Translations under genes and position numbers: made by a program
Notes under the pieces: generated by a model
Databases searched by the model: none
Told to the model about the DNA's origin: nothing
What the model saw: only the letters and a program-made list of their open reading frames with translations
Assembly: GCA_964225545.1 (NCBI GenBank)
Contig: CAXQPB010000185.1
Span: forward strand, 1,781-65,780
Source of the DNA: Nitrosopumilus sp.
Lineage (GTDB): Bacteria > Desulfobacterota > Binatia > UBA1149 > SPBQ01
DNA: 64,000 bases
Reading direction: 5' to 3'
Part shown: positions 27,862 to 43,043 of the stretch, piece by piece
Layout: each line of letters opens with the position of its first letter
How positions within the stretch are numbered: position 1 is the stretch's first letter

Positions 27862-27865
27862 GCCT

Positions 27866-28267: not shown

Positions 28268-28308
28268 GGAGCAGCTGCCCCAGCTTCTCCAGCCGCTATC
28301 CCGAGGTC

Positions 28309-29580
28309 ATGTTCCGCCGAATCGTCGCAATCACAGTCTTTGTCATCCTGGTGGCAGCCGTCAGTCTGCTGGTTCACTGGAACGCCGCGCAGACATCCTT
28401 CAAGCTGACGCCCGAGCTGACCTTTAATTTGCCGCTCGGCATTCTCATGATCGCCGCGGCAGTCGCGGGCGCGCTGGTCATGTTCATCCTCGCACTCATG
28501 CGCGAAGGCCGCCTCGCTCTGCGCGACTGGACCGTGCACCGCGAGATCCGGATCGCACAGCGCAACGCAGCGCAGATCACCGAGGCGCGGTCACAGATCC
28601 TCGCCGGAGAGTACAAGCGCGCGCGCAACCTGCTGACGAAGTCCACGCAGAAGCGTGCCATGGAGATCAGCGACATCATCGATTTCGCAGAGACCTACCT
28701 TCTCGAGGGGGATCCGCTCCAGGCACGAAAGGTTCTCGAGGAGGCGCAGAAGGACTTCGGAAACGAGCCGCTGCTGCTGTTCGCGCTCGGCCGCGCGTGC
28801 AAAGCCACAGGGGATCTCCCGGCCGCGCTCAGCGCGCTCGAGCGAGCTGTCTCGGTCTATCCGACAAGCATGCCGATCCTGACCCTGCTTCGGGACATAC
28901 TGTTCGAGACCGAGTCCTGGGAGCGCGCGGCCGAAGTTCAGGGCCGCATCGTTGAGCTCAACGCGGATGATGCTTCGGAGAAGAACTGGCTCCTCGGCGC
29001 CCGCTATGAGGCCGCGCTGCAGGCCGAGGAGAGCGCCAGAGACACAGCGCTGCGCGAGCTCGCGAGCGACGCTCCGGACTTCCTGCCCGTGCTTGTCCAC
29101 CGCGCCAGAATTCTGGCCGACACCGGAGACTGGCGCCGCGCAATGAAGATGCTGGAAAAAGCGGTCCGCAAGCGACCGCACGGCGCGGCGCTCGCTGAGC
29201 TCGAAGCGCTGGTCCCCGCCGAGGAGTCTTCACGCCTGGCGAGGCTCTACGGCAAACTTGTCGCCTCGACTCCGCAGAGCGTCGGCCTGAGGCTGCGGGC
29301 GGCGCACTACCTGATCAAACACGGACGCGTCGAAGAGGCGGCTGAAACGCTCAAACCGCTTGCCGAAAGCGGAGAGGCTTCGGTGGCCAAGGCGCTGTGG
29401 GGGGAGATCCACGACGCTCGTGAAGAATCCTCCCTGGCGCATTTTGCTTACCGGGACGCTCTGATCGAGAGCGAAGCGTTCAGCCCCCACTACAGCTGTG
29501 AGGTATGCGGAGCGGCAACCGGTGACTGGCACGCCCGCTGCGACAATTGCGGCGCATGGGGAATGTTCGAGTCGATTTAG
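28309..29580 (+). CDS. lapB: LPS assembly protein LapB (YciM)-like TPR/rubredoxin protein with a LapA-like two-TM N-terminus
   Basis: Start at ATG 28309. Two TMs (IVAITVFVILVAAVSLLVHW; LPLGILMIAAAVAGALVMFILALM), then TPR-like repeats, then C-terminal CEVCGAATGDWHARCDNCGAWG (CX2C-X10-CX2C). Confidence 0.75.
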   Translation: MFRRIVAITVFVILVAAVSLLVHWNAAQTSFKLTPELTFNLPLGILMIAAAVAGALVMFILALMREGRLALRDWTVHREIRIAQRNAAQITEARSQILAGEYKRARNLLTKSTQKRAMEISDIIDFAETYLLEGDPLQARKVLEEAQKDFGNEPLLLFALGRACKATGDLPAALSALERAVSVYPTSMPILTLLRDILFETESWERAAEVQGRIVELNADDASEKNWLLGARYEAALQAEESARDTALRELASDAPDFLPVLVHRARILADTGDWRRAMKMLEKAVRKRPHGAALAELEALVPAEESSRLARLYGKLVASTPQSVGLRLRAAHYLIKHGRVEEAAETLKPLAESGEASVAKALWGEIHDAREESSLAHFAYRDALIESEAFSPHYSCEVCGAATGDWHARCDNCGAWGMFESI

Positions 29581-30743
29581 TCGTCTTCGGCCGCGCAGAC
29601 CCGTGCCGCGACTCTCGCGAGAGCCGCCACTTCATGAACGTCGCGATCGAGCGCGGGAACTGCGACTGTATCGATGTCATCGGGCAAGCCCGCCTCGAAC
29701 GCCTCTCGCCGGATCTCTTCGCCACGCGCCACCGTCGACGCCTTCAGGTACGTCGCGATCATCCACTCCAGCTCGGCTCGAAGATCATCGTCGCTTGAAG
29801 CGAGCGACGGGCATGCCGTTTTCAACCGCTCCAGCAACTCGTCGGGGTCCGGTCCGCGCTCCGCTGAGCCCGGGAGAGGGTGAACCCGATTCATCACCAC
29901 TCCCTTGAGCGGCATCCCGAGTTCGCTCATCTTGCTCGTCAGGTACTCGCTCTCCCCGAGGACCTGCTCATCCGGTCCGGCGACAAGAACAAAGGCCGTG
30001 TCTTTACCTGAGAGCAGCGCCCGGACGCGGCGTCCGCGCTCGGTGATTCCATCAAACAGGTTCTCCATCGCCATGAAGAACTCGCTGATCTCCGCCAGCG
30101 TGCGCGCTCCCGCGGCCTCTTCGATTTTCTCCACCAGAAACCGCACCGTCCTGCTGGCCGTTTTCCACGCGCTCCAGCCCGCCGCCAGATACGGCTTGAC
30201 CAGCCAGCCGACCACAGACCGGTCGAGGAAGTCCTCGAGCCGGCGTGGCGCCTCGAGGAAATCGAGCGCATGAGATGTCGGGGGCGTATCCAGAACGATC
30301 AGGTCGTACTCGCCGGACTCATGAATCCGGCAGAGTTCCTCGATCGCCATGTATTCCGTCGAGCCGGCAAACGATCGCGACAGGTGCTGGTAGAACTCAT
30401 TCGCCAGAATCGTCCTCGCAGCCTCCGGCGTAGGTGAATGCCGGCTGATAAAGTCATCCCACGCGCTCTTCTGGTCGAGCATGCCCGCGCTCAACGTCCC
30501 GCGAGGGTGGACGCCTCCGGCCTCGAGCACCTCTCGCGAGATCTCCTCACCGCGGCAGCCGAGCGAATCCAGCCCGAGCGACTGTGCGAGCCGCCGCGCA
30601 GGGTCGATCGTAAGCACCCTCGCGCGGCGTCCGTCGATGGCGCCCTGGAGCGCAAGCGCCGCGGCCGTGGTGGTCTTTCCCACCCCACCGCTGCCCACGC
30701 ATACGACAATCCGATGATCGGCAAGAAGTCGTGCCAGGCTCAT
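29577..30743 (-). CDS. ArsA/Get3-like P-loop ATPase (paralogue 1)
   Basis: 388 aa. Deviant Walker A VGSGGVGKTTTAAALA. TIDPARRLAQSLG. Switch II-like VLDTPPTSHALDFL. No ars genes nearby. Confidence 0.85.
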   Translation of the reverse strand: MSLARLLADHRIVVCVGSGGVGKTTTAAALALQGAIDGRRARVLTIDPARRLAQSLGLDSLGCRGEEISREVLEAGGVHPRGTLSAGMLDQKSAWDDFISRHSPTPEAARTILANEFYQHLSRSFAGSTEYMAIEELCRIHESGEYDLIVLDTPPTSHALDFLEAPRRLEDFLDRSVVGWLVKPYLAAGWSAWKTASRTVRFLVEKIEEAAGARTLAEISEFFMAMENLFDGITERGRRVRALLSGKDTAFVLVAGPDEQVLGESEYLTSKMSELGMPLKGVVMNRVHPLPGSAERGPDPDELLERLKTACPSLASSDDDLRAELEWMIATYLKASTVARGEEIRREAFEAGLPDDIDTVAVPALDRDVHEVAALARVAARVCAAEDD

Positions 30744-31696
30744 TCGACAACCCCCGGCGCGAGCTCGGGAATCCTTCGCGCAAGCTCCTCTACCTCGTGA
30801 ATGCCGAACTCTTCGGAAGCGAGCGCCGGAAGGCGAACGACCTTCAGCGCCGTGGCCGCCTGAAACTGCGCAATGGACAACTCCTGGACATCCTCCCAGG
30901 CCAGCGCGCGGTCTGCAGCCGTCCTGACGCCGTCAACAAGCCGGGTCGCGTCCTCGTCACCCGGGCTGCCGGCCTGGGCATCGAGCGCTGCCAGAACCGA
31001 GCGGGCAGCGGCCGGCGCCGCCGCACGGCAGCGATTGACGAGGATTTCTCCCAGCGGGAGATCGAGATCGCCGTTGATCTTCTCGACGATCTGCTGGGCC
31101 TCCACGAGCGGCATCTCCTCGGGCAGCGCGACGACATGCACAGCCGTCGTATCTGCGTCCTTGATCAGCGCCTCGACCCGCCGGGCCTCCCTGTGGACGA
31201 GTCCGGACCGGAATGTCTCGGCGGCGGTCGTCGGCATCTGGAGATATTGGAGGCTGTGCCCGGATGCGCCCGCATCGACGTAGATTGCGTCCCACGTCGC
31301 CGACCCGTCCGGATTGGTCTTCTGATTCTCGAACCAGATCTTGCCGATCGACATCAGCTCTTTGAGACCGGGCGCCGCCGCTACGAAGTAGCGATAGAGC
31401 TTGCTGCCGAAGACGGTCGCCAGAAGCCGGCGGATCGGTATGATGATCTCGAGGTATTCCGCCAGCGCGGTATCGCCCTCGATGTAGGCAACGGAGAGCC
31501 CCGGACGAACCTCTACCGATCGCCCCGATTCCTGCGCGGTGCGACCGAAAAAGCGACACAGCCCACCCGCGCCGCCGAGCTCGACGGCGAGTGTCCGCTT
31601 CCCGCTCTCGGCAGAAGCCATCGCCATGGCCGCCGTCAGGGTCGATTTGCCGACCCCGCCCTTGCCGACTATGAAATGAAGTCGTTTTCCAGACAC
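30740..31696 (-). CDS. ArsA/Get3-like P-loop ATPase (paralogue 2)
   Basis: VGKGGVGKSTLTAAMA. Degenerate switch II YVDAGASGHSLQYL. Start set at GTG 31696 (GAGGGAG upstream); ATG 31774 is possible. Stop overlaps the start of paralogue 1. Confidence 0.8.
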   Translation of the reverse strand: MSGKRLHFIVGKGGVGKSTLTAAMAMASAESGKRTLAVELGGAGGLCRFFGRTAQESGRSVEVRPGLSVAYIEGDTALAEYLEIIIPIRRLLATVFGSKLYRYFVAAAPGLKELMSIGKIWFENQKTNPDGSATWDAIYVDAGASGHSLQYLQMPTTAAETFRSGLVHREARRVEALIKDADTTAVHVVALPEEMPLVEAQQIVEKINGDLDLPLGEILVNRCRAAAPAAARSVLAALDAQAGSPGDEDATRLVDGVRTAADRALAWEDVQELSIAQFQAATALKVVRLPALASEEFGIHEVEELARRIPELAPGVVE

Positions 31697-31833
31697 GGAC
31701 TGCTCCCTCACAGCGGTACCACGCTTCCGTGCACGCGCAACCTGGACCCGTCGCCCTGGCAGTATACAATCCACGCACGGTGCAGGATTCCCGCGTCAGT
31801 CATCCGTCCGCCGGTGCGCCTCGAGTCAAGGCT

Positions 31834-32547
31834 GTGCGGCTGCTGTTTGTCGCGATGTTGACGCTGGCGAGCGGGTGTGGAGCGCCCGCGCCTCTCGGCG
31901 AGCAGCAACTGTACGACGAGGCGAGCCAGGAGTTCGAGCGCGGCAACTTCAGCCTGGCCAGCCAGCGCTATGACGAACTCCTCGAGCAGTTTCCGTTCTC
32001 GGACCTTTCCGAGGTCGCGCGGCTTCGGGTAGGACAGGCCTACTACCTCAACGGCGACTACCACAAGGCCATCGCGGCCTTCCGCGACTTCGAGAGACTC
32101 CACCCGACCAGCCGGCTGCTCGACTTCGTTGAGTACACGATCGGGATGAGCCACCTCGACCAGGCGCGCTCGCGCGACCGGGACAAATCAGCGACGGATG
32201 AGGCGCTGCGACAGTTCGACCGCGTCGGAGAACGCTACCCGGCGTCGATCTACGGGCGGCTGGCGGAGTATCGCGAGGAGCAGTGCGAGCAGAAGCTCGC
32301 CAGCCACGAACTCTACGTCGGTGATTACTACGTCAAAACAGGCGAGGTCACAGCAGGCCTTGCCCGCTACCGTTACGTTCTCGACTACTATCCCGCCACC
32401 GACGCGGCGCTCCTGTGTGCCGAGCGACTCGGCCTGCCTTCCGACGATTACGGACCGAACGCACCGGAGCGGACCTCTGGATACGAGATCATCGAGATCC
32501 CCGCGTCCGAGACGGGCATACTCGACCCGAACCTCGGTCTCGACTAG
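31834..32547 (+). CDS. bamD: Outer-membrane protein assembly lipoprotein BamD (YfiO)
   Basis: Lipoprotein signal MRLLFVAMLTLASG|C from GTG 31834. TPR-like body (FPFSDLSEVARLRVGQAYYLNGDYHKAIAAFRDFERLHP...YPASIYG...YVGDYYVK). Confidence 0.85.
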   Translation: MRLLFVAMLTLASGCGAPAPLGEQQLYDEASQEFERGNFSLASQRYDELLEQFPFSDLSEVARLRVGQAYYLNGDYHKAIAAFRDFERLHPTSRLLDFVEYTIGMSHLDQARSRDRDKSATDEALRQFDRVGERYPASIYGRLAEYREEQCEQKLASHELYVGDYYVKTGEVTAGLARYRYVLDYYPATDAALLCAERLGLPSDDYGPNAPERTSGYEIIEIPASETGILDPNLGLD

Positions 32548-32582
32548 CGACGCGGGCGACTTTCCCGCCTGACCGCTGAGGG

Positions 32583-33392
32583 TCAGTCTTCGAGCAACGT
32601 TTCGCGCAGCCTGCCGACCACAGCCTCGTCGATGCCGATCGAGTGCAGGTAGGCTTCGGGAGATCCCCAGATCCGGTCGAGCTCGTCGAGCGTCCGCTCC
32701 ATGCGTTCGGGGGGACTCGACGTAAGGTAAGCGATCGCTGCGTCGTCCATGCCCAGCCGGATCATCTCGTCCCGATACGACTCAAGGACGGACCGGAGAT
32801 TCCCCTCCGAGACCGCATAGTCCGCGATCACATCCGCCTGCGATACGCCGAGCAACCGAAGGAGAACCGCGGCTACCACACCGGTCCGATCCTTGCCCCC
32901 GGTGCAGTGGAAGACGCACGCGCCGGACTCGTCGCTGGCGAGCCAGCCGAAGATCCTGCGCATGCTTTCGCCGCCCTCGTGAAGCATCTCCACGTAGCGC
33001 TCCTGGAGTTGCAGGTTCGCCCAGTCGATCTCCGGGCTGAAAGGGCTGAGCGAAATCTGCACGAGAGGGACATGAACATGACGTCGGCCCGCGACGAAGT
33101 CGCCCGTACCGTCGTTTTCGAGCTCGCGCTCGCTGCGCAGATCAAAGACGACCTCGATTCCGAGAGGATCGAGCACGGAGCTGTCGGCCTCCCCCAGTCG
33201 ATGCAGGGCGTCAGCCCGAAACACTCTCCCCCGGACTACCCGTGCCCCGTCTGCGCCGCGATGTCCTCCGAGGTCGCGAAAGTTGCTGGCCCCTTCGAGC
33301 GGAAGCGCCTGCGAGAGCTCCGCCTGCTCGCCGGCGGGCTCTGTGCCCTCCCCTCGCCCGTGCCTGTGCCCTGTTGCCGGTTTGCGTGTCAT
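32583..33392 (-). CDS. Protein tyrosine/dual-specificity phosphatase-like protein (Y_phosphatase3-like)
   Basis: 269 aa. NFRDLGG near the N-terminus. CX5R P-loop HCTGGKDRTG. Confidence 0.8.
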   Translation of the reverse strand: MTRKPATGHRHGRGEGTEPAGEQAELSQALPLEGASNFRDLGGHRGADGARVVRGRVFRADALHRLGEADSSVLDPLGIEVVFDLRSERELENDGTGDFVAGRRHVHVPLVQISLSPFSPEIDWANLQLQERYVEMLHEGGESMRRIFGWLASDESGACVFHCTGGKDRTGVVAAVLLRLLGVSQADVIADYAVSEGNLRSVLESYRDEMIRLGMDDAAIAYLTSSPPERMERTLDELDRIWGSPEAYLHSIGIDEAVVGRLRETLLED

Positions 33393-33482
33393 GACTGGCT
33401 TGTAGCTGCTGCGGAATACCCAGAAAAACCGCGCGATGCAGGGCGTTCAGCGGGAATCGCTACCCGGAACCCGGCCCCGCCT

Positions 33483-33516: not shown

Positions 33517-33641
33517 AGCCTTATCAAGAGTGGTGGAGGGATTAGGCCCTGCGAAGCCACAGCAACCGATTCGAACGGCCACGCCGCTTGAATGCCAGGT
33601 GCTAAATCCTACGCCCCGGGAAAAGGGGGTGATAGATGAGG
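33517..33641 (+). promoter_or_regulatory. SAM-I (S-box) riboswitch aptamer
   Basis: CCUUAUCAAGAGUGGUGGAGGGAUUAGGCCCUGCGAAGCCACAGCAACC...CCAGGUGCUAAAUCCUACGCC...GGUGAUAGAUGAGG. This matches the conserved S-box blocks UUAUCAAGAG-GGUGGAGGGA-GGCCC-GAAGCC-GCAACC-GGUGCUAA-UCC and the P1 closing strand. Confidence 0.9.
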
Positions 33642-33658
33642 CAGGGAACGCGGTACAG

Positions 33659-33724
33659 CCTCTTCCTTGCTCATCAATCCGGACGACCGAGTTCGGTCGA
33701 CTTGATGAGGGAAGAGGTTTTTTT
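33659..33724 (+). terminator. Intrinsic terminator (riboswitch expression platform)
   Basis: 5' arm cctcttcc(ttg)ctcatcaa 33659-33677. Inner hairpin cgaccg-agtt-cggtcg. 3' arm ttgatgagggaagagg 33702-33717. U7 tract 33718-33724. The 5' arm can instead pair with the P1 3' strand (gatgagg), giving an antiterminator. Confidence 0.85.
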
Positions 33725-34484
33725 GTACCCGATTTCGAACAGGAACGGATCGCAGGCCGCCCCTCGGGTGCTCATCGTGGGCCTCGGCGCGCTGGGCTGT
33801 CCGGCCGCGGAGACGCTGGCAGACAGCGGCTGTGTAGACCTCACGCTCGTCGACGACGACCGCGTAGAGCTTTCCAATCTCCAGCGCCAGACTCTGTTCA
33901 ACCGGGAAGACGCCGAGCGGGCGACTCCCAAGGCCATCGCCGCGGAGCAGGCTCTGTCCGGGCACGGCCAGACCCGGCGCGTCGAAGCCATCGTCGACAG
34001 AGTGACCGCGAAGAACGTCGCCCACCTGGTGAGCGAGAACGATTTCGTAATCGATGCCTGCGATAACCCGGCTACGAAACTGCTCCTCAACCGCGCCTGT
34101 GTCGCAGCGGGAACGCCGCTCGCCTACGGCGGGGTCGTGCGTACCGGCGGCCAGACAATGACGATCATCCCCGGCCGCTCCGCCTGCCTCGAATGCGCGT
34201 TCCCTGCCCTCGCAGAGGACGCCGAGACCGACGACGGAGACTCGTGCAGCCGAATGGGAATTCTTGCGCCGGTCGCGGGTGTGATCGGCTCACTGCAGGC
34301 CGTCGCGGCGCTCGAGACCCTCTCTGGCCGCAGCGATGGTGGAGAGATGCAAATCTACGACCTGACGGCGACGCACTGGCGTACCATCAGATTCGAACGG
34401 GATCCGGCTTGCGGGACCTGTGGACAGGTCGCGTCAGCGACGGACTCCGATACAGCCAGGAGGCTACCGACATGCCCTATGTAA
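33705..34484 (+). CDS. ThiF/MoeB-family E1-like adenylyltransferase lacking the N-terminal RYxRQ segment and lacking a rhodanese domain
   Basis: RVLIVGLGALGCPAAETLADSG...LVDDDRVELSNLQRQTLF...VIDACDNPATKLLLNRAC...SACLEC...GILAPVAGVIGSLQAVAALETL...PACGTCG, colinear with MoeB from about residue 33 onward. Start is uncertain: ATG 33705 lies inside the terminator 3' arm, and GTG 33768 is the next candidate. Confidence 0.85.
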   Translation: MREEVFLYPISNRNGSQAAPRVLIVGLGALGCPAAETLADSGCVDLTLVDDDRVELSNLQRQTLFNREDAERATPKAIAAEQALSGHGQTRRVEAIVDRVTAKNVAHLVSENDFVIDACDNPATKLLLNRACVAAGTPLAYGGVVRTGGQTMTIIPGRSACLECAFPALAEDAETDDGDSCSRMGILAPVAGVIGSLQAVAALETLSGRSDGGEMQIYDLTATHWRTIRFERDPACGTCGQVASATDSDTARRLPTCPM

Positions 34485-35737
34485 CCGGCATGAAATGCAG
34501 AGAGTGTGGCGAGAACTACGAGCTCGCTCCCGTCAACGTATGTGAATTCTGTTTCGGACCGCTCGAGGTTCAGTACGACTACGACTCCATTGCGGCAAGC
34601 ATCAGTCGCGAGAAGATCGAGTCACGCCCACGGAACCTCTGGCGTTACCGTGAACTCCTTCCCTGCGAAGGCGAGCCGCACATCGGGCTTTACTCGGGCT
34701 TCACCCCACTGGTCAAAGCGGACCGGCTGGCGGCGGCGCTCGGCGTCAAAGAGCTCTACGTAAAAGATGACTCCTGCAATCACCCGAGCTTCTCGTACAA
34801 AGACCGTGTGGTATCGGTCGCCATCACAAAGGCGATCGAGTTCGGATTCGATACTGTATCCTGCGCCTCGACGGGCAACCTGGCCAACTCGGTCTCCGCG
34901 CACGCGGCGCGCGCCGGGCTCCGATGTTTCATATTCATCCCCGACAATCTCGAGCGCGGCAAGGTCATCGGGTCGGGGATCTATGCACCTACGACCGTCG
35001 GCATTCGCGGCACCTACGACGATGTGAACCGGCTCTGCACGGAGATCGCCGACAAGTACCGATGGGCCTTCGTGAACATCAACCTCCGCCCCTTCTATAC
35101 CGAAGGCGCGAAGACATACGGCTATGAGGTCGCGGAGCAGCTCGGCTGGAAGCTCCCGCAGCACATCATCGTCCCGACCGCCGGTGGCACGATCCTTCCG
35201 AAGGTTGCGAGGAGTTTTGAAGAGATGGTCCGGGTCGGCCTCGTGGAGGACACGCCCTGGAAAATCTATTCTGCGCAGGCCGGCGGTTGTGCGCCTGTCG
35301 TCAACGCCCTGCACAGGGAGAGCGATCTCATCGAGCCCGTGCGGCCGGACACGATCGCGAAGTCAATCGCGATCGGCAACCCGGCAGACGGCTACTATGT
35401 CCTCGGTGCGGTACGCGGATCCGGTGGATGGGGCGACGCTGCAACCGACGAAGAGATCGTGGACGGGATCAAACTGCTCGCACGGACCGAGGGCATCTTC
35501 ACCGAGCCGGCCGGCGGCACGACGGTCGCAGTAACCAAGAAGCTGATCGAGAAAGGCCGCATACCACGAGATGAATCGATCGTGATCAGCGTGACGGGCA
35601 ACGGGTACAAAACCCTCGAAGCGGTCGCAGACAGCGTCGAACGACCGCACGTGATCGGCGCGCGACTCGGTGAGTTCGATGACCTGTACACCGGACTCGG
35701 CCCTGACGCGGGAGAACTCAATCGCGAGGTTGGCTGA
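34472..35737 (+). CDS. Threonine-synthase-like PLP enzyme (candidate MetM-type homocysteine-forming enzyme)
   Basis: 421 aa from ATG 34472 (SD ccaggagg 34457-34464). N-terminal zinc ribbon CRECG...CEFC. PLP-lysine context NHPSFSYKDR. TAGGTILP loop. The track ORF from 34193 is an upstream extension overlapping the E1 gene. Confidence 0.8.
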   Translation: MPYVTGMKCRECGENYELAPVNVCEFCFGPLEVQYDYDSIAASISREKIESRPRNLWRYRELLPCEGEPHIGLYSGFTPLVKADRLAAALGVKELYVKDDSCNHPSFSYKDRVVSVAITKAIEFGFDTVSCASTGNLANSVSAHAARAGLRCFIFIPDNLERGKVIGSGIYAPTTVGIRGTYDDVNRLCTEIADKYRWAFVNINLRPFYTEGAKTYGYEVAEQLGWKLPQHIIVPTAGGTILPKVARSFEEMVRVGLVEDTPWKIYSAQAGGCAPVVNALHRESDLIEPVRPDTIAKSIAIGNPADGYYVLGAVRGSGGWGDAATDEEIVDGIKLLARTEGIFTEPAGGTTVAVTKKLIEKGRIPRDESIVISVTGNGYKTLEAVADSVERPHVIGARLGEFDDLYTGLGPDAGELNREVG

Positions 35738-35783
35738 GCCCCTCTGCGACGAGTATAGTAAGGGACTTTTCAGGAGGATCCGG

Positions 35784-36062
35784 ATGGCAGTTCAGGTGAG
35801 AATACCGACCCCGCTGCGCAAATTCACGGACGGCCAGGAAGCCGTGCCGGCAGACGGAGCATCGATTGCGGAGGTCATCGAGGACCTCGAGGCAAAACAT
35901 CCCGGCCTCAAGGACAGGATCTGTGAGGCCGACGGCAGCGTTCGGCGCTTCGTCAATCTGTACGTCAACGGCGACGACATCCGATTCCTCGACAATCTCG
36001 GATCGGCCGTAAAGGACGGCGACGAAGTGTCGATCGTCCCGGCCATCGCAGGCGGCGCCTGA
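35784..36062 (+). CDS. MoaD/ThiS-family sulfur-carrier protein ending in GGA
   Basis: 92 aa from ATG 35784 (SD caggagga). MAVQVRIPTPLRKFTDGQ...FVNLYVNGDDIRFLDNLGSAVKDGDEVSIVPAIAGGA*. Beta-grasp carrier pattern with one residue after the diglycine. Confidence 0.85.
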   Translation: MAVQVRIPTPLRKFTDGQEAVPADGASIAEVIEDLEAKHPGLKDRICEADGSVRRFVNLYVNGDDIRFLDNLGSAVKDGDEVSIVPAIAGGA

Positions 36063-36130
36063 GCGGCCCGGCTCGCGTCGCGTCCGGCATCCGGTGCCGG
36101 TAAGCGACGTGACACCAGAGGGTACCCTCG

Positions 36131-37069
36131 ATGACCGTGGCCGCTTCGACGCAGAGAATTCCCCAGGTCCTCGATCTCATCGGTAAGACGCCGATGGTCG
36201 AGATTCGGCGGCTGCGCGGCAATACCCCGGACGGAGTGCGCCTGTACGCCAAACTCGAGGGCTTCAACCCTGCGGGTTCTGTCAAGGATCGACCCGCGTG
36301 GAACATGGTGCGGCGCGGGCTCGAGAGCGGTGAGCTCTGCCCTGGCAAGACCATCATCGACTCGACATCGGGCAACACCGGCATCGCTCTCGCGATGATC
36401 GGCGCGGCGCTGGGCTATCCGGTCGAGCTCGTAATGCCTGAGAACGTCTCGGCCGAGCGCAAACGGGTCATCTGCGCCTACGGTGCGAAGCCGATCTATT
36501 CGAGTGGACTCGAAGGTTCCGACGGCGCGCTGCTTCTGTGCAAAGAGATCCACGAGGCGAACCGCGACCGCTACTTCAAGCCAAACCAGTATTACAACGA
36601 GGCCAATCCCGAAGCGCATTACCTGACGACCGGGCCGGAGATCTGGCACCAGACCGAGGGCAGGGTCACGCACTTCATAGCCACACTCGGCACCGGCGGC
36701 ACGGCGATGGGCACCGGCAGGTTTCTCAAGGATCAGCGTCGCGATGTCCAGATCATCGGCGTGGAGCCTGACGATGCGTTTCACGGCATCGAGGGCCTGA
36801 AGCACATGGAGAGTTCGATCGTCCCCGGCATCTACCACGAGGATGAGCTGGACGTGAAGCTCGGGATCTCGACCGAGGAGGCCTACGACATGGTCCATCG
36901 ACTCGCCAGCGAGGAAGGCCTGATGGTCGGCCAATCGAGCGGCGCGGCGCTGGTGGCTGCGCACCGGGTAGCATCCGAGCTGGAACAGGGGTGCGTGGTC
37001 ATGATTTTCTGCGACTTCGGAGATCGTTATCTTTCGACGAATCTCTGGACGGGTTTCGGCAATCTCTGA
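36131..37069 (+). CDS. CysK/CysM-family PLP-dependent sulfhydrylase (cysteine synthase-like)
   Basis: 312 aa. IGKTPMVEI. PLP lysine in NPAGSVKDRPA. STSGNTG. LGTGGTAMG. SSGAAL. Confidence 0.88.
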   Translation: MTVAASTQRIPQVLDLIGKTPMVEIRRLRGNTPDGVRLYAKLEGFNPAGSVKDRPAWNMVRRGLESGELCPGKTIIDSTSGNTGIALAMIGAALGYPVELVMPENVSAERKRVICAYGAKPIYSSGLEGSDGALLLCKEIHEANRDRYFKPNQYYNEANPEAHYLTTGPEIWHQTEGRVTHFIATLGTGGTAMGTGRFLKDQRRDVQIIGVEPDDAFHGIEGLKHMESSIVPGIYHEDELDVKLGISTEEAYDMVHRLASEEGLMVGQSSGAALVAAHRVASELEQGCVVMIFCDFGDRYLSTNLWTGFGNL

Positions 37070-37085
37070 GTGGAGGTCGGCGAGT

Positions 37086-37325
37086 ATGGCGACACAACGT
37101 TTCTATCTCACGTACAGCGAAGAGAAGATCAAAGAGCCGATCATCTACCACGTCACCAAAAAGTTTGACGTGGTCACCAACATCCGGGCGGCTTCGATCT
37201 CTGACCATATCGGGATCGTCGCTCTCGAACTCGACGGCGAAGAGAGCGTGATCCTCGAGGCCGTGCGCTGGATCGCCGCTCAGGGCGTGAAAGTCGAGCC
37301 GATCCAGAAGAACGTCATCGAATAG
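37086..37325 (+). CDS. Stand-alone NIL-domain protein
   Basis: 79 aa. YLTYSEEKIKEPIIYHVTKKFDVVTNIRAASISDHIGIVALELDGEESVILEAVRWIAAQGVKVEPI resembles the NIL domain at the C-terminus of the MetN methionine-import ATPase. Confidence 0.7.
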   Translation: MATQRFYLTYSEEKIKEPIIYHVTKKFDVVTNIRAASISDHIGIVALELDGEESVILEAVRWIAAQGVKVEPIQKNVIE

Positions 37326-37366
37326 ATCACCCGCGAGAGCACGTGAGAACGCAGCCGCCAGGGGCT

Positions 37367-37918
37367 ATGCGAAGCCGAACGGCGTCGTTGACTGACGCCG
37401 AGATCGATCTGTACGCACGCCAGATCATCGTACCGGGCGTGGGCGCCGCAGGTCAGCTGCGGCTGTTGTCCTCGCCGGTTTATTTTCCGGGTCAGAGCGC
37501 AGACGCCCGGCTCGGTCGCCGCTACGCAGCAGCGGCGGGGATGCCGATTGTCCACAACGCTCAGGCCGCGACGCTCGCCATTGTGAGCCTGTGTCAGACC
37601 GAGCCTCTCGATATGATCGCGAGAATGATCGAATCGCGCACGGACTCGACGGCAGCCTCCAATCTGTCACAGATGCCGATCGTGCTTTACGGCGCGGAGC
37701 ACCTGCCGCGGCCTCGGATCGTTTGCGGCGCCGAGCAGCTCCACGCTGTGCGACGAAACTGTACGCCCCCCACTTCCACGCGTCCATCCGCGCATCTCAA
37801 CGCTGCCGCATGCGCTGCCGCAGGCACAGCGACGGCATTGATTCTCGGCTGGCGGGCGGCAGAGGGTTTCGGCGCAGACGGCCCGCGCCCTGTACGCCCC
37901 GCACGGTCCAATGGATAG
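37367..37918 (+). CDS. Degenerate E1-like (ThiF/MoeB-like) protein retaining the N-terminal YARQ segment but lacking the nucleotide-binding Gly loop
   Basis: SLTDAEIDLYARQIIVPGVGAAGQLRLLSSPVYFPG aligns by eye with MoeB LSDQEMLRYNRQIILRGFDFDGQEALKDSRVLIVG, but GxGxxG is replaced by YFPGQS. The C-terminal AAAGTATALILGW resembles the GviGslQA helix. Its stop overlaps the next start (ATGGATAG). ATG 37367 preferred over GTG 37343. Confidence 0.6.
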   Translation: MRSRTASLTDAEIDLYARQIIVPGVGAAGQLRLLSSPVYFPGQSADARLGRRYAAAAGMPIVHNAQAATLAIVSLCQTEPLDMIARMIESRTDSTAASNLSQMPIVLYGAEHLPRPRIVCGAEQLHAVRRNCTPPTSTRPSAHLNAAACAAAGTATALILGWRAAEGFGADGPRPVRPARSNG

Positions 37919-39215
37919 CCCCGTCCATCTCAAGGTCGAGCTGGCGATCAGCGGGCTGCGGCTGGCTCCAGAGCTCGCGGCCGAGCCCGCGCTGTTTACC
38001 GGTCTCCCGAGCCCGGCGGTCTCCGGCGGCGACGTTGAGCTGTTGCTCGCCGATGACGTGATCGCGCGCTGCCCTGTCAGCACGTCATCGGCTCGGCACT
38101 CACCGTACGAGCTGCGAACGGAAAACGACCGCTTCTATGTTGCCCAGATCGACTCCTCGGGCGCGATCACCGAGCAGGTGGGCGTAGACGTGATCGCGCC
38201 GCCCGCGTTCCTGGGAAACCGGACATCCCGGGGCACAGCGATGAACGAGATCGGCGCGGTGCACGCCGGTTACGTATCGATCGATCTGTCGGACGGCTGC
38301 GGTTTCGCTGAGTCTGGCAACCGCTGCAGATTGTGCAGATTGCGAACGGAACCTGTACCCGACTCCACGCGGGTCGGGCCACCGGCGGTCGATGACGTCC
38401 TCGAGGTGATCGGGGCTGCGTTTGCCGAGGGAGCAGCCGAGTTCGTGTACTTCGACATCGGTTTTCCCGGAACTCCCGACAGGGAGGCGGACGGAAGCGA
38501 CGCGCACGATCCGGAGGACGGCGGTTTCAGCGTGATCGAACCTTACCTGAGCGCGGTCAAGCGTGAGTTTGACACCCTCGTCGCCGTAAAGAGTCACCCG
38601 CCCGGCGATCACCGGTGGATCGACCGGACCTATGCAGCCGGAGTCGATGCGCTCAGTTACGCGATCTATATCCACGACGAGAAGAGACTTGCTGAGACCT
38701 GTCCGGGGCGCGCGAATCGGATGCCGCAAGAGCGTTACTACGAAGCGCTCGAGTATGCGGCACGCATCTTCCCCAGCGGAACGGTCTGGAGCGACCTCCT
38801 GATCGGAATGGAGAGGGAGGAATCAACCCGAGACGGCATTGACCGACTGACGGGGATGGGAGTACTGCCAATCCTGTCACTGCGTCCTTCCCTTGATGTC
38901 GCAGCGTCGAACGATGACGCGACCGATCACGAGCGCGTCTCGATCGAGCCGGAGAAGATCGCACCGCTGTACGCTCACCTGTATCAGACCGTGCGCGAAG
39001 CACGGATCAACGTCCAGCATATGCGCGATCTCGGATACGCCATCACCACGATGGAAGCTCGCTTTTTTGCGGGTGAAGATGCAAAACTGATCGTCGCGGT
39101 GAACGGCTTTTATCGCTCGCGCCTGGGCAGTCGCGCGGTGCGAGGACTGTCGAAACTCCGCCGTCGACTTCGAGTGCGCAGGGTTCGGGAATCGTTCGAT
39201 TCCTCTCAACTCTGA
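37911..39215 (+). CDS. Uncharacterised radical-SAM-like protein with a CX8CX2C motif
   Basis: 434 aa. VHAGYVSIDLSDGCGFAESGNRCRLC (Cys130/139/142, nt 38298-38336). Later TIM-barrel-like pattern (AGVDALSYAIYIHDEKRL...RYYEALEYAARIFPSGTVWSDLLIGMEREESTRDGIDRLTGMGVLPI). Basic C-terminal tail. Family not recognised. Confidence 0.5.
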   Translation: MDSPVHLKVELAISGLRLAPELAAEPALFTGLPSPAVSGGDVELLLADDVIARCPVSTSSARHSPYELRTENDRFYVAQIDSSGAITEQVGVDVIAPPAFLGNRTSRGTAMNEIGAVHAGYVSIDLSDGCGFAESGNRCRLCRLRTEPVPDSTRVGPPAVDDVLEVIGAAFAEGAAEFVYFDIGFPGTPDREADGSDAHDPEDGGFSVIEPYLSAVKREFDTLVAVKSHPPGDHRWIDRTYAAGVDALSYAIYIHDEKRLAETCPGRANRMPQERYYEALEYAARIFPSGTVWSDLLIGMEREESTRDGIDRLTGMGVLPILSLRPSLDVAASNDDATDHERVSIEPEKIAPLYAHLYQTVREARINVQHMRDLGYAITTMEARFFAGEDAKLIVAVNGFYRSRLGSRAVRGLSKLRRRLRVRRVRESFDSSQL

Positions 39216-39331: not shown

Positions 39332-40753
39332 ATGGACGTCGTAGTTGACACCCGCCCACTCTGGGTCGTCGTTCTCTCACGGTCGACCCGCCTCCTGCGT
39401 CTGCTCATCGGCGTTGCCGCGTTCTGGGCGATCTGGTCCATGGAAACCCCGGCAGGACTGACTGTCGAGGGGCAGAAGGCTCTGGCGGTGTTCGCGCTGT
39501 CCGTCAGTTATTGGGTGCTCAATGCCCTGCCCCTGATGATCACGAGCCTGGTGGCGATAGCACTGATCGCACTCACGGGCGTGATGACTTCCGAGCAGGC
39601 CTACTCCCTGTTCGGAAACTCGGCGGTGTTCTTCATTCTCGGGGCGTTCATTCTGGCCGCCTGCCTGATGAAATCCGGGCTCTCGACCCGACTGACCCTG
39701 GTGTTTCTCAAGCGCTTCGGTCAGACGCCACGCTCCCTCCTCGTCGCGGTATTCCTGCTGAACGCGTTCATGTCTTTCTGGATGTCTGAACATGCGGTCG
39801 CGGCGATGAACTTTCCCATTGTGGCAGAGATTGTCGCCGTGCTGGGGCTGCGCCCCTTCCGCCACTCGTACGGCAAAGCTCTGTTTGTGGCGCTGGCGTG
39901 GGGATCGACGATCGGCGGGGTTGCGACTTTGTTGGGCGGTGGCCGTGCTCCACTCGCGATCGCGGTACTCGCAGAGGTCACCGGCAGTCAGCCCTTCGAT
40001 TTTCTCAGCTGGTCGCTGCATGCGCTGCCGACCGTATTCATCATGCTCGCCATCGGATATTTCGTCATCTCGCGATGGTTCCCGATCGATATCGACAGCG
40101 TGTCCCAAGCCGAAGAGGTTCTGGCGGAGCGCGTCGCCAGCCTTGGAAAAATGAGCTACGAGGAGAAGGGCATCGCCGCGATCATGCTCGTAACCGTCGC
40201 GGTGTGGGTCTTTTTCGGGCATGAACTCGGTCTCGCGAACGTCGCAATCATGGCGGTAGTAACGTTGTTCGCGCTTCGTCTCGTCGCATGGCGCGACGTC
40301 GAGGAGTACGTCAACTGGGGAATCATCCTGATGTACGGTGGCGCAATCTGTCTGGGCAAAGCGCTCGATGCATCCGGGGCCGCGTCGTGGATGGCCGAGA
40401 GGTCAATCGGGCTGTGGGTGCATTCGCCGACTGCGGTGGTCGCATCCCTTTCGTTTACGACCTGGCTCCTCACCGAGGCGATGAGCAACTCCGCCGTCGT
40501 CGCGCTGATGATGCCGGTCGGACTCGGTGTCGCCCGCGATGCCGGGTTGCAGCTGGCCACCATCGCTCCGACGATCGCGATCCCCGCTGGCTTCGCCTTC
40601 GCCTTCCCCATCGGCACGCCGGCCAACGCGATCGCTTACAGCTCGGGCTATCTCAAACTGCGCGACCTGATCATTCCGGGGATGTTGCTCGGGCTGATGG
40701 CGTGGCTGACCTTCAACCTTACAGCCGCCCTGTACTGGCCGCTCATTCAGTAA
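39332..40753 (+). CDS. DASS/SLC13-family anion:cation symporter
   Basis: 473 aa, polytopic. Hairpin-tip motifs WMSEHAVAAMNFPI and TEAMSNSAVVALMMPV. FAFPIGTPANAIAYSSGYL. Confidence 0.8.
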   Translation: MDVVVDTRPLWVVVLSRSTRLLRLLIGVAAFWAIWSMETPAGLTVEGQKALAVFALSVSYWVLNALPLMITSLVAIALIALTGVMTSEQAYSLFGNSAVFFILGAFILAACLMKSGLSTRLTLVFLKRFGQTPRSLLVAVFLLNAFMSFWMSEHAVAAMNFPIVAEIVAVLGLRPFRHSYGKALFVALAWGSTIGGVATLLGGGRAPLAIAVLAEVTGSQPFDFLSWSLHALPTVFIMLAIGYFVISRWFPIDIDSVSQAEEVLAERVASLGKMSYEEKGIAAIMLVTVAVWVFFGHELGLANVAIMAVVTLFALRLVAWRDVEEYVNWGIILMYGGAICLGKALDASGAASWMAERSIGLWVHSPTAVVASLSFTTWLLTEAMSNSAVVALMMPVGLGVARDAGLQLATIAPTIAIPAGFAFAFPIGTPANAIAYSSGYLKLRDLIIPGMLLGLMAWLTFNLTAALYWPLIQ

Positions 40754-40900
40754 ACAGGGAAGACACGCCGAAACGCGTCGACTCGATGAGGACGGTCGCT
40801 GTGCGACCGGTGGGCCTCGGTCCGGCCTCGGAGCGGGCAGCAACAGCGGACTCCTCCGAGCCAGCGGTTCGGCGACGTGCTCCGATCCGGATCATTTCGC

Positions 40901-41215
40901 TCAGACCGCAGCCGCGGGTGGAGCGAAGCGAACCTCGTAGCCGAACACTGCCGTGAGCAGATAATAAACCGCCATCAACGCCGCTACCGTCGTCACCATG
41001 GCACCTACGGCAACTCCCGACAGCATCACAACGCTCACCACGCCGGCCGCAGCCACGATCGGAGTCAGGACCGAGGAGCGGTTGAAGGGGTCGACGGGCG
41101 TGACGAGCGACGCCAGACCGCCATCCCGGGCCTCTCTATCGAGCGCATCAAACAGCCCGCGCATCTGCTCGTTCATGGACGTCCAGGCGCCGTCAAAGTC
41201 GAAATTCCAGTCCAT
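40901..41215 (-). CDS. Hypothetical small membrane protein (last gene of the ECF operon)
   Basis: 104 aa. Acidic soluble N-half (MDWNFDFDGAWTSMNEQMRGLFDALDRE) and two hydrophobic segments at the C-terminus. Starts 3 nt after the upstream gene. Confidence 0.55.
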   Translation of the reverse strand: MDWNFDFDGAWTSMNEQMRGLFDALDREARDGGLASLVTPVDPFNRSSVLTPIVAAAGVVSVVMLSGVAVGAMVTTVAALMAVYYLLTAVFGYEVRFAPPAAAV

Positions 41216-41217
41216 CC

Positions 41218-41754
41218 CTACTCTCCTCCCGTCTTCAAGGTTTCAAAGGATTCGATTGCCGGCTGCGACGGCGCTCGAATACTGACGATAATCGTGCCTG
41301 CGTCGGTCCTGCTGCTGCGGAGCAGCAGGTTCGCGTTACGGCTGAGCTTCACGTCCGCGTTGAGGACCGGTCGGTTATCCTGAATCAGGAGCAGTCTCAT
41401 TTTGAAGTGCCCCGGAGTGCTCTCCGTTGTCTTCATCTGCAGGTATCCGCCGTCGGGCAGCTCCATCCCGCACTGGGCTCCCGCCCTGAACGGACACGCC
41501 TCTATGTGGAGCAGATCGTAACGCTTGAACGGGAACCCTCGCAGCTGGGGTTTGAGATCCTTGAGCCGAGGATCGAGTCCACGTCCCTCTTTTGACGCCA
41601 GCACGGCAGCAACCTGGACGATGGACGTCTGGCTGTTTTGAACTTCGGCGCTCGGGTCGGCCCGCGAAAGGTCGGGCGAGCAGACGTAGCCGATACAGAG
41701 GATACCGATACCGGCTGCACACACCCTTCGAAATCTGGTTGCGAGCCGTTCCAT
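41218..41754 (-). CDS. Hypothetical exported protein (ECF operon)
   Basis: 178 aa. N-terminal signal-like segment RRVCAAGIGILCIGYVCS. No family recognised. Starts 4 nt after the anti-sigma gene. Confidence 0.55.
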   Translation of the reverse strand: MERLATRFRRVCAAGIGILCIGYVCSPDLSRADPSAEVQNSQTSIVQVAAVLASKEGRGLDPRLKDLKPQLRGFPFKRYDLLHIEACPFRAGAQCGMELPDGGYLQMKTTESTPGHFKMRLLLIQDNRPVLNADVKLSRNANLLLRSSRTDAGTIIVSIRAPSQPAIESFETLKTGGE

Positions 41755-41757
41755 TCG

Positions 41758-42402
41758 TCAGCGTCCCTTAGCTGCGGTGTTGCTCACGCCGAAAGCCCCA
41801 TTGGACGATTCGTCCAAGCTGTTGACCCAGATCACCTGCGTTCGCGTTTTGGGTCGTGCCCAGACCGCAACGGTTCTGCCCTGGGCAACTTCCATGGTGT
41901 CGATTCGCACGGCCTTGCCGCGCTGCTCCGCGGGCGCGGCACTGCCTCCACTCACGGCTTTCGCAATCTTTTCCTGGAAGGAGCCGACTCCGGGTATCTC
42001 GAAACCGCCGAACAGCATGAAGGCAAGGGCTGCAGCGGCAGCGGCGAAAGCTCCCGCCCGGAACGGGGAAGGACCGAAAAGTCCTGCCACCAGTCGGCCC
42101 AACAACGAAACATCGTCGCTCGACTGTTCAACCATTCGTCGGCGCGGTCTGGCTGCAGGTGCGAGGCCGCCTTCTTCATCCAGTCGCGATTCGATCGATT
42201 GCCATAGACCTGTGAGGTCTACCGCGGCCGCCTTGTCGGCCACTGTCGATCTGAGCAACGCCGACGCATATTGGTGGTTCGTGGCCAGAGAGTGGCAAGA
42301 GTTACACGCCTGTACGTGCTCGGCCGCAGACGCCATCTGCCCGTCCGGCATCTCTGCGTCGACATAACGGTCGATGTTCTCTTCGAAGTCTCGACAGTCC
42401 AC
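41758..42402 (-). CDS. Anti-sigma factor (zf-HC2 type)
   Basis: 214 aa. MDCRDFEENIDRYVDAEM...AAEHVQACNSCH (H-X3-C-X2-C). Central TM (AGAFAAAAAALAFMLFGGF). Confidence 0.85.
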   Translation of the reverse strand: MDCRDFEENIDRYVDAEMPDGQMASAAEHVQACNSCHSLATNHQYASALLRSTVADKAAAVDLTGLWQSIESRLDEEGGLAPAARPRRRMVEQSSDDVSLLGRLVAGLFGPSPFRAGAFAAAAAALAFMLFGGFEIPGVGSFQEKIAKAVSGGSAAPAEQRGKAVRIDTMEVAQGRTVAVWARPKTRTQVIWVNSLDESSNGAFGVSNTAAKGR

Positions 42403-42405
42403 GGT

Positions 42406-42975
42406 TCAGACCAGCTCCCTGAGCCTCGTTTGCAGCTTCTTTCTGGCGTAGTGGAGCCTGCTCATGACAGTTCCGAGGGAGCAGTCGAGGGTCTGGCTGA
42501 TCTCCTCGTAGGAGAGTCCGTCGACCTCGCGCAAAAGTATGACCGCCCGATGATCTGGCGTCAAATCACCTATGGCCTCGAAAATCTTCGATCCGAGCTC
42601 ACGGCTACGCACAGCGTCGAACGGATCTTCACCTTGCGTTTTTCCTCCGAATGCCATCGTCGCGTCGCCCGGCGGCAGGCTCTCGTCATATTCGACGTTC
42701 GTTCGCTTGCTTTCCTTTCGTTGTAAATCGATCGAAAGGTTGAAAGCGATCCGATACAGCCAGGTGTAAAACGACGAATCGCCCTTGAAACCATCGAGAT
42801 TGCGGAAAGCGCGCACAAACGTCTCCTGCACCACCTCTCTGGCGTCCTCCGCGTTGCGAACCATACCGACCGCTACACCCAGAATCCGGCGCTGGTAGCG
42901 TTCTGCCAGCGCCTGGAGGGCTTCACGGTCGCCGGTTCTACCGCGCGCGACCAGCTCAGCGTCCGACAGATCCAC
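42406..42975 (-). CDS. ECF (group 4) RNA polymerase sigma factor
   Basis: 189 aa. Region 2 (AEDAREVVQETFVRAFRNLDGFKGDSSFYTWLYRIAFNLSID) and region 4 (REVDGLSYEEISQTLDCSLGTVMSRLHYARKKL). Confidence 0.92.
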   Translation of the reverse strand: MDLSDAELVARGRTGDREALQALAERYQRRILGVAVGMVRNAEDAREVVQETFVRAFRNLDGFKGDSSFYTWLYRIAFNLSIDLQRKESKRTNVEYDESLPPGDATMAFGGKTQGEDPFDAVRSRELGSKIFEAIGDLTPDHRAVILLREVDGLSYEEISQTLDCSLGTVMSRLHYARKKLQTRLRELV

Positions 42976-43043
42976 CCAGCATGCTCCATGCCAGTACTGA
43001 TTGACGCACGGCCGATTGGTTTATTCGGGAGATATTCGAGCCC

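Follow-up and report, generated by a model that had tools for sequence, protein, structure and literature searches.

How does an E1-type adenylyltransferase that lacks the N-terminal segment of its family complete its active site? This question is raised by an operon in the window analysed here, a 64,000-nt stretch of contig CAXQPB010000185.1 (assembly GCA_964225545.1), to which all coordinates refer. The operon was read from the list of open reading frames (ORFs) together with Pfam and NCBIfam scans, and all its genes lie on the + strand. One of them encodes a ThiF/MoeB-type E1 of 259 amino acids (aa) without the N-terminal RYxRQ helix (33705–34484), and another an ORF of 183 aa, hereafter the pseudo-E1 (37367–37918), which begins with a segment of this kind. 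The adenosine triphosphate (ATP) site of Uba4, MoeB and ThiF is formed by Gly, Arg, Lys and Asp of one subunit together with the N-terminal Arg of the other (Uba4 Arg18, MoeB Arg14, ThiF Arg11; PMC7527816, PMC13139853), and the arginine is given by an inactive domain in asymmetric E1s such as BilD and NAE1–UBA3 (PMC10557695) and in Tcd1–Tcd2 (PMC13139853). An earlier note on this DNA had named both forms of donation, in trans between MoeB or ThiF subunits and from the inactive subunit of eukaryotic heterodimeric E1s, when it proposed a partnership of the two proteins, and these papers bear it out. We consider it fairly probable that the operon encodes an asymmetric E1 of two polypeptides, with one active site, for a ThiS-type sulfur carrier, and that this enzyme arose by duplication and complementary loss.

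Against Pfam ThiF (PF00899), the E1 scored 207.5 bits (cutoff, 28.1), with profile positions 22–237 of 238 matched; no RYxRQ helix was found in the window E1, profile positions 1–21 being unmatched. Compared with solved structures, the match began at residue 29/31 of ThiF (E-value, 3e-42) and residue 32 of MoeB (2.5e-38), and the NCBIfam models for MoeB, ThiF and MoeZ were matched only from about position 22–43 onwards. The residues that bind ATP-Mg within the subunit (equivalents of MoeB R73, K86 and D130) are kept, in the GLGALG glycine-rich loop, SNLQRQ, PK and DACDN, and two zinc CxxC pairs (CLEC and CGTC) are present. Across 40 truncated E1s, the glycine-rich loop, the Asp-x-Asp after strand beta2, N-L-x-R-Q, the Lys, DxxD and the cysteines were invariant, and an RYxRQ-like motif was missing from 119 of the 120 best homologs of the window E1. 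The nearest full-length relative (P0298) lies in an unrelated gene neighbourhood. No catalytic-cysteine domain was found, as the E1 (253–259 aa) has no crossover-loop insertion, and no E2-like gene was found in the operon, which sets this enzyme apart from the conjugation E1s.

The truncation is not an artefact of annotation or of a frameshift, because the DNA directly 5' of the E1 is filled by a riboswitch and its terminator. The operon leader contains an S-adenosylmethionine (SAM)-I riboswitch aptamer (33518–33642, + strand; Rfam RF00162, 81.4 bits against a gathering cutoff of 44.4, E-value 1.2e-17), followed by a terminator hairpin with a U7 tract (33658–33725, + strand), which runs into the start of the E1 ORF as called. 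Folding of positions 33645–33730 gave −40.5 kcal/mol, with a z-score of −5.96 and 0 of 200 shuffles as stable, and placed the U7 tract at 33719–33725; a consensus terminator scan did not pick up this terminator, its loop being too long, and RNA folding confirmed it. The terminator extends up to the Rossmann strand, whose first base is 33765, and the same SAM riboswitch was detected 5' of the E1 in 10 of 10 other related loci tested. A hidden upstream N-terminus or a frameshift in the E1 was thus ruled out. The description in the earlier note, of an E1 that aligns only from the Rossmann strand on and lacks about 30 N-terminal residues including RYxRQ, therefore stands.

Translation of the E1 probably begins at TTG 33723, and the protein would then be even shorter; many ortholog gene calls begin with M/L-Y-P, equivalent to this TTG in the window. 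The peptide EEVFLYP (33705–33731), found also in L001, L005, L007, L031 and others (our handles for related loci), was considered as a new protein motif and rejected: it is the 3' arm of the terminator and the U7 tract read as codons, and its conservation is at the RNA level because the terminator encodes the peptide. Both a Shine–Dalgarno-like run, GGAAGAGG, and TTG 33723 lie inside the terminator, and judging from this arrangement SAM may control both transcription and ribosome access.

The second protein is a degenerate E1 copy. The pseudo-E1 is 183 aa long from ATG 37367, or 191 aa from GTG 37343, the start chosen by gene callers, and the N-terminus of the 183-aa form is MRSRTASLTDAEIDLYARQIIVPGVGAAGQLRLL. 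The window protein gave no match in Pfam, and matched NCBIfam MoeB only at positions 3–69, far under the cutoff (E-value, 2e-4). A profile made from the pseudo-E1 and five relatives matched only the N-terminal residues 2–61 of Uba4 (E-value, 1.3e-12), MoeB (8e-7) and ThiF (2.5e-6), a range quoted as 1e-12 to 5e-6, confirming that this ORF carries the segment missing from the E1. An exhaustive profile search recovered about 75 clusters at 50% identity, all of 150–190 aa and matched over their full length, so that the ORF is conserved in relatives. The family is missing from Pfam and NCBIfam, and source databases name its members 'hypothetical' or, wrongly, adenylyltransferase.

As had been observed at the outset, the glycine loop of the window pseudo-E1 is replaced by VYFPGQS (FPGQSAD; GHPRG in relatives) and its adenylation core is largely lost: beyond the N-terminal segment, no conserved adenylation-site Arg, Lys or Asp was found in the family alignment. 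The near-invariant positions among 64 sequences were L8, R18, Q19, P23, G26, G29, Q30, G42, Y53, G58 and G121, most of which fall in the YARQ...PGxGxxGQ segment. R18 of YARQ, with a conservation of at least 90%, corresponds in the alignment to R18 of Uba4 and R14 of MoeB. Conservation was 0.72 at residues 8–34 and fell to about 0.5 in beta1/alphaA and in the C-terminal helix; the rest of the protein stood at about 0.25. Besides the N-terminal segment, the protein retains a reduced Rossmann core, with strand beta1, helix alphaA and a C-terminal helix of the E1 fold; the part that binds zinc and the carrier, at the C-terminus, is gone.

The AlphaFold2 (AF2) model of the pseudo-E1, built from a 33-sequence alignment, had a predicted local distance difference test score (pLDDT) of 82.9 and a predicted template-modelling score (pTM) of 0.75, with local pLDDT values of 66–78 in the N-terminal helices and above 90 in the core. 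The top PDB matches of this model by Foldseek were all of the E1 superfamily, namely Uba4, MoeB, ThiF, MccB, SAE1 and the inactive E1-like domain of LynD/TruD, with a probability of about 1, TM-scores of 0.45–0.54 and E-values of 3e-3 or weaker; TM-scores as modest as these are expected for a reduced domain, such as the model predicts. Compared with an ortholog of 66% amino-acid identity, the pseudo-E1 showed a ratio of nonsynonymous to synonymous substitution rates (dN/dS) of 0.32, and it is a real conserved gene under purifying selection. Between the window and L001, the dN/dS values of the E1 (0.19), the pseudo-E1 and the radical-SAM protein ranged over 0.18–0.32, and those of the MetM-like, ThiS, CysM, NIL and SLC13 proteins were about 0.02. 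In this comparison, the E1, the pseudo-E1 and the radical-SAM protein thus evolve about 10 times faster than the rest of the operon.

The coverage of the two proteins splits along the E1 fold, the E1 matching ThiF/MoeB from residue 29–32 on and the pseudo-E1 profile matching residues 2–61. When the pseudo-E1 was aligned with the truncated-E1 family by hhalign, only 33 weak columns were aligned, with a probability of 15%; we took this result as a sign of complementarity and not of homology. As only these columns are common, the part that marks the pseudo-E1 as an E1 is the part lost from the enzyme, and the alignments show complementary loss between the two proteins at the level of residues. 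The locus therefore holds two paralogous E1-fold modules, one of which lacks the ATP-binding residues, and, as far as sequence can tell, an inactive module that keeps the N-terminal arginine; both are marks of an asymmetric E1.

To the survey suggested in the earlier note, of whether truncated E1s co-occur with this ORF, the answer was uniform: about 39 loci have a truncated E1 together with a pseudo-E1, and no exception was found. A truncated E1 was present in every pseudo-E1 locus for which upstream sequence was available. Conversely, in five of five loci sampled from the list of E1 homologs a pseudo-E1 followed NIL, four of them being either full-length or interrupted where the contig stops, and that of L039 being a 268-aa form. 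The pseudo-E1s form a size series of 254–268 aa (full-length and degenerate), about 200–235 aa (hereafter ~220 aa) and 150–190 aa (the window type). The second gene of L039 encodes a full-length ThiF domain of 268 aa (Pfam, 60.9 bits; profile positions 1–234), and P0176 is similar; the L039 protein keeps an ERFSRQ N-terminus and the zinc cysteines, its glycine-rich loop reads GLTAAV, the SNLQRQ arginine is absent and DxxD is lost. Pfam ThiF scores were 61–88 bits in the 254–268-aa class, above the cutoff of 28.1, and 20–27 bits in the ~220-aa class, below it; the latter class (200–235 aa) has an invariant N-terminus and keeps the CxxC pair (alignment A6). A metagenome scan located the ~220-aa class after NIL, in the same operon, on about 25 soil or sediment contigs with enough flanking sequence, and on every one of these the E1 is without the RYxRQ-like motif.

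The pair can also be found on its own. In L077 and L078, the truncated E1 adjoins a 201-aa pseudo-E1, with an ATGA overlap in L077, and the neighbours are a HAD hydrolase, adenosine phosphosulfate (APS) kinase and ATP sulfurylase, with no MetM, ThiS, CysM or NIL gene nearby. This adjacency indicates that the pseudo-E1 is separable from NIL and tied to the E1. ATP sulfurylase/APS kinase genes lie repeatedly beside the pair or the operon (L077, 8267–12726; L078; L036, 6584–7744; L038, 15962–17296), suggesting a link of the system to assimilatory sulfate activation. Furthermore, the two parts occur in one chain: P0145, a protein of 469 aa from Planctomycetota, joins a truncated E1 (ThiF profile positions 19–237), TusA and a pseudo-E1 (pseudo-E1 profile, E-value 1.2e-24). 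Its cluster has 12 members, mostly of 469 aa, and four of them come from separate Planctomycetota metagenome-assembled genome (MAG) records, on contigs of up to 440 kb. The TusA domain (residues 251–310) sits between the E1 and pseudo-E1 parts and has a cysteine motif of the CPxN/CPxP type, RCPLN; it is a candidate sulfur-delivery module, with no counterpart in the window operon.

Finally, eight loci, selected by N-terminal pattern, have an unsplit enzyme. Their gene order is MetM-like, ThiS, E1, NIL, the E1 is of 270–294 aa with a full N-terminus (ThiF, 279 bits; profile positions 1–237), and no second ORF matching the pseudo-E1 profiles was found in any of the eight. The pseudo-E1s score best against these unsplit operon E1s, which fits a duplication of the operon E1 itself. 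The partnership of the two proteins that the earlier note had put forward is thus supported by co-occurrence, complementary loss, a full-length degenerate intermediate, adjacency, fusion and the unsplit operons.

Based on these observations, we propose the following mechanism. The catalytic subunit would bind ATP-Mg and the carrier, and the pseudo-E1 would stand in for the second protomer, forming a physical heterodimer, in effect a pseudo-dimer with a single complete active site. The N-terminal helix-loop-helix of the pseudo-E1, with Arg18, would be laid over the ATP site of the catalytic subunit, donating the arginine in trans. The Gly-Gly end of the carrier would then be adenylated and afterwards thiocarboxylated, the thiocarboxylate would supply the MetM-like and CysM-like enzymes, and SAM would switch the whole operon off. 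The presence of TusA in the fusion hints that the pseudo-subunit side may also dock a sulfur donor. As to origin, the operon E1 would have been duplicated, both copies would have degenerated in complementary ways, and the pseudo-subunit would have shrunk stepwise, from 268 aa to ~220 aa and then to 150–190 aa.

Several points weigh against this mechanism. The pseudo-E1 evolves fast, with a dN/dS of 0.32 and a within-family identity of 25–30%. In the window it lies four genes from the E1 and is translationally coupled to NIL or the radical-SAM gene, not to the E1. The unsplit loci were picked by N-terminal pattern, so that only the absence of a pseudo-E1 there counts as independent. The distance matrices of E1 and pseudo-E1 correlate at a raw r of 0.82, which is weak evidence as all genes follow one species tree; a partial mirror-tree control was unsound, since the CysM distances do not track those of other genes, and only the raw value is cited. 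The AF2 model of P0145 (pLDDT, 62.4; pTM, 0.45) drops below 50 in the latter half of its E1 part and at the end of its pseudo-E1 part, and its domain packing is unreadable; in the alignment used for it, MAFFT placed the rows correctly only with six or fewer E1 rows. Furthermore, MoeB R14 and ThiF R11 are reported to be non-essential, and TcdA of Escherichia coli has no finger (PMC13139853), so that a homodimer of the truncated E1 might still work. For the same reason, the pseudo-subunit may serve dimerisation, scaffolding or stability more than arginine donation and, by analogy with what Tcd1 does for Tcd2, may act mainly in stability or assembly.

Carried to its end, the last argument would have the truncated E1 working alone as a fingerless homodimer and the pseudo-E1 acting as an adaptor, for the sulfur donor, the NIL protein or the PLP (pyridoxal phosphate) enzymes, or as a regulator, its inactive E1-like fold being reused for protein binding, as happens with the E1-like domain of cyanobactin heterocyclases. 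Besides the dispensable finger of MoeB and ThiF and its absence from TcdA, this agrees with the consistent position of the pseudo-E1 after NIL, the genes often overlapping, with the inactive E1-like domain of LynD/TruD as the best Foldseek match, and with the lack of a rhodanese in the E1, which thus needs a sulfur-delivery partner and which in the fusion has TusA beside the pseudo-E1 part. However, conservation of the pseudo-E1 peaks in precisely the segment that acts in trans on the ATP site of a partner, with its Arg and its GxxGQ loop; the pair exists without NIL, MetM and CysM in L077 and L078, NIL is found without a pseudo-E1 in the unsplit operons, and a pseudo-E1 occurs exclusively in company with a truncated E1. 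We regard this alternative as unlikely. The stoichiometry could also differ, with the E1 still forming a homodimer on which two pseudo-E1s dock (A2B2), each inserting its N-terminal segment like a fragment of a split protein. The N-terminal helices of the pseudo-E1 are modelled with a lower pLDDT than the core, as if they folded onto a partner, and much of the E1 core is gone from the mini pseudo-E1; but in the 268-aa and ~220-aa forms the E1 fold is preserved wholly or for the most part, core helices included, which fits replacement of a protomer, and the known asymmetric E1s are 1:1 pseudo-dimers. An A2B2 assembly accordingly seems to us rather improbable. That the 183-aa ORF is merely a non-functional, decaying remnant of a duplicated E1 is the reading that its fast evolution, its relaxed dN/dS (0.32 against 0.02 in its neighbours) and the lack of any family model recognizing it would suggest. 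We give it hardly any credence, as the ORF holds the same position in about 39 loci across 25–30% identity with invariant motifs, its dN/dS is well under 1, its start and stop overlap adjoining genes, and it is kept as a domain of a fusion protein in several separate Planctomycetota MAGs.

We next compared the proposed asymmetric E1 with known systems. It shares with MoeB, ThiF and Uba4 the fold of the E1, the within-subunit ATP-Mg residues, the zinc cysteines and a ThiS/MoaD-type Gly-Gly carrier, and the chemistry, formation of an acyl-adenylate and then a thiocarboxylate, is presumably the same. Those enzymes, however, are symmetric homodimers in which the RYxRQ of each protomer completes the site of the other, whereas here the segment is on a separate dead paralog; in addition, MoeZ and Uba4 carry a rhodanese domain, which the window E1 does not. 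Until BilD, every known bacterial E1 was described as a homodimer (PMC10557695). BilD, of the Bil antiviral system, is likewise bacterial and combines an inactive adenylation domain, which supplies Arg9, with an active one (PMC10557695), but it is a single chain with the inactive domain first and a CYS domain, and serves protein conjugation in defence, whereas the present system has two genes and belongs to sulfur amino-acid metabolism; the Planctomycetota fusion also differs in order, with the active domain first, then TusA and the pseudo-domain. Yeast Tcd1–Tcd2, the tRNA ct6A dehydratase, is a ThiF-family heterodimer with one active centre, in which the inactive partner gives the finger and is needed for stability (PMC13139853). 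It differs in being eukaryotic, in acting on tRNA and in having two full-length subunits, and its finger is not essential, R59A costing 26% of activity (PMC13139853).

The eukaryotic SAE1–SAE2 and NAE1/APPBP1–UBA3 also consist of two paralogous E1-fold polypeptides, of which one lacks nucleotide binding and supplies the arginine, as the sequence suggests for the pseudo-E1. They differ from the window system, a sulfur-carrier system with no catalytic-cysteine domain, ubiquitin-fold domain or E2, and their inactive subunit exceeds 300 aa, compared with 150–190 aa for the pseudo-subunit here; the origin of the latter is almost certainly independent of the eukaryotic heterodimeric E1s. The MetM/MetO/MoeZ/Mec route of Streptomyces albulus and the CysO/CysM/MoeZ/Mec route of mycobacteria resemble the window operon in the ThrC-like enzyme, the ThiS-type carrier, the CysM-type enzyme and C-terminal trimming of the carrier, and a SAM riboswitch lies 5' of S. 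albulus metM, as in the window operon. Their activator, MoeZ, is a full-length E1 with a rhodanese, whereas the window operon has a truncated E1 with a pseudo-E1, an extra NIL and no Mec/JAMM. The E1-like domains of the YcaO cyclodehydratases LynD and TruD are also degenerate E1 folds without nucleotide binding that serve as partner or docking modules, and these inactive domains bind leader peptides. To our knowledge, they have not kept the RYxRQ segment with the arginine finger, where the pseudo-E1 is most conserved. A full-text literature search of incomplete coverage found no paper on a split E1 or pseudo-E1 in sulfur-carrier metabolism.

On balance, and with less confidence than in the two-polypeptide E1 itself, we lean towards a wider view. 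Bacteria would have independently evolved an asymmetric E1, a design of one inactive and one active adenylation module regarded as typical of eukaryotic-type E1s, as separate subunits in primary sulfur amino-acid metabolism, with the pseudo-subunit as an obligate activator, whittled down (268, ~220 and ~150 aa) to a minimal arginine-finger/dimerisation module that is widespread in soil and sediment bacteria and lies outside Pfam and NCBIfam; dependence on a second gene product may give the cell one more point of control or, as TusA within the fusion suggests, a place for the sulfur donor to dock. With the unsplit enzyme, a truncated E1 with a full-length dead paralog, the mini pseudo-subunit and a re-fusion all within one pathway, the origin of asymmetric E1s becomes directly testable, and a pseudo-subunit of 150–190 aa would define what an inactive adenylation domain must retain. 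Many genes called 'ThiF family adenylyltransferase' or 'hypothetical' in thiocarboxylate Met/Cys operons are mis-described or undescribed. Pathway tools of the GapMind type, which expect MoeZ, would miss the second subunit, and a Met/Cys route rebuilt in a different host would probably not work unless the small ORF came with it.

Four genes separate the E1 and the pseudo-E1 in the window, as the earlier note had counted. The first encodes a threonine-synthase-like (ThrC-like) PLP enzyme (34472–35737; Pfam PALP, 207 bits; NCBIfam thrC, 271 bits), a candidate homocysteine synthase of the MetM type. Its gene adjoins that of a ThiS-type carrier and is led by a SAM riboswitch, a setting shared with Streptomyces MetM/MetO that suggests by analogy a MetM role; of the signs of a MetM pathway, the ThrC-family match, the ThiS match and the riboswitch were all found, and these models do not separate MetM from ThrC. 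The second gene encodes a sulfur-carrier protein of the ThiS/MoaD/SAMP type (35784–36062; Pfam ThiS, 64.7 bits; NCBIfam SAMP1, 64.1 bits against a cutoff of 60), which ends in ...AIAGG-A. Its orthologs (L001–L034) have an invariant AIAGG followed by a variable tail, which was A, L, V, F, C, VA, ASA, APARR, APAEISTR or none, indicating that C-terminal processing of the carrier is needed; judging from these tails, a protease encoded outside the operon must trim it. The Pfam and NCBIfam scans found no rhodanese domain in the E1 or the operon and no JAMM/Mec gene in the operon, and a crude regular-expression scan of the whole window for JAMM and rhodanese motifs gave nothing convincing; genes of either kind could be located outside this stretch of the genome.

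The third gene encodes a CysM-type cysteine synthase (36131–37069; Pfam PALP, 243.8 bits; NCBIfam cysKM, 347.3 against a cutoff of 344, and cysM, 377.5 against 394). Over 12 loci (the window, L001, L005, L007, L011, L012, L031, L033–L036 and L038), the pairwise distances of CysM correlated with those of the other operon proteins at r values of −0.17 to 0.11, compared with 0.5–0.84 for all others. This discord could reflect replacement by a paralog, horizontal transfer or an artefact of ORF picking. The fourth gene, for a stand-alone NIL-domain protein of 79 aa (37086–37325; Pfam NIL, 51.9 bits), always lies immediately upstream of the pseudo-E1 in operon-type loci; the protein is highly conserved (dN/dS, 0.02), and in unsplit operons (L105, L107, L113, L116 and L118) its gene is directly 3' of the full-length E1.

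Two accessory genes follow the pseudo-E1. A variant radical-SAM protein of 434 aa (37911–39215; NCBIfam NF045502, 127 bits against a cutoff of 125) has no Pfam match and carries a C-x8-C-x2-C motif; the ATG of its gene overlaps the pseudo-E1 stop by 8 nt. The other encodes a symporter of the SLC13-type Na+/sulfate family (39332–40753; Pfam Na_sulph_symp, 197.8 bits). The radical-SAM gene occurs in some operon lineages only, mostly along with the SLC13 symporter.

The flanks of the window operon (about 27500–33400 and 40900–45700) are conserved in L005 and L031–L039, even where the identity of the pseudo-E1 is only 25–30%. The conserved order is an ArsA-like ATPase pair, BamD/YfiO, a divergent Y_phosphatase3, the operon, small genes, an extracytoplasmic-function (ECF) sigma/anti-sigma pair and PolA. 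The MAGs that share this neighbourhood are labelled discordantly, as Myxococcales, Binatia, Dadabacteria, Limnocylindrales and Deltaproteobacteria, and some of these labels are probably unreliable. Within L032 (4751–6467), the ThiF and ThrC-like genes of the operon are in short pieces (130 aa, and 67 + 188 + 145 aa, respectively) and PolA is split too, a breakage that points to a frameshift-rich assembly or to gene decay.

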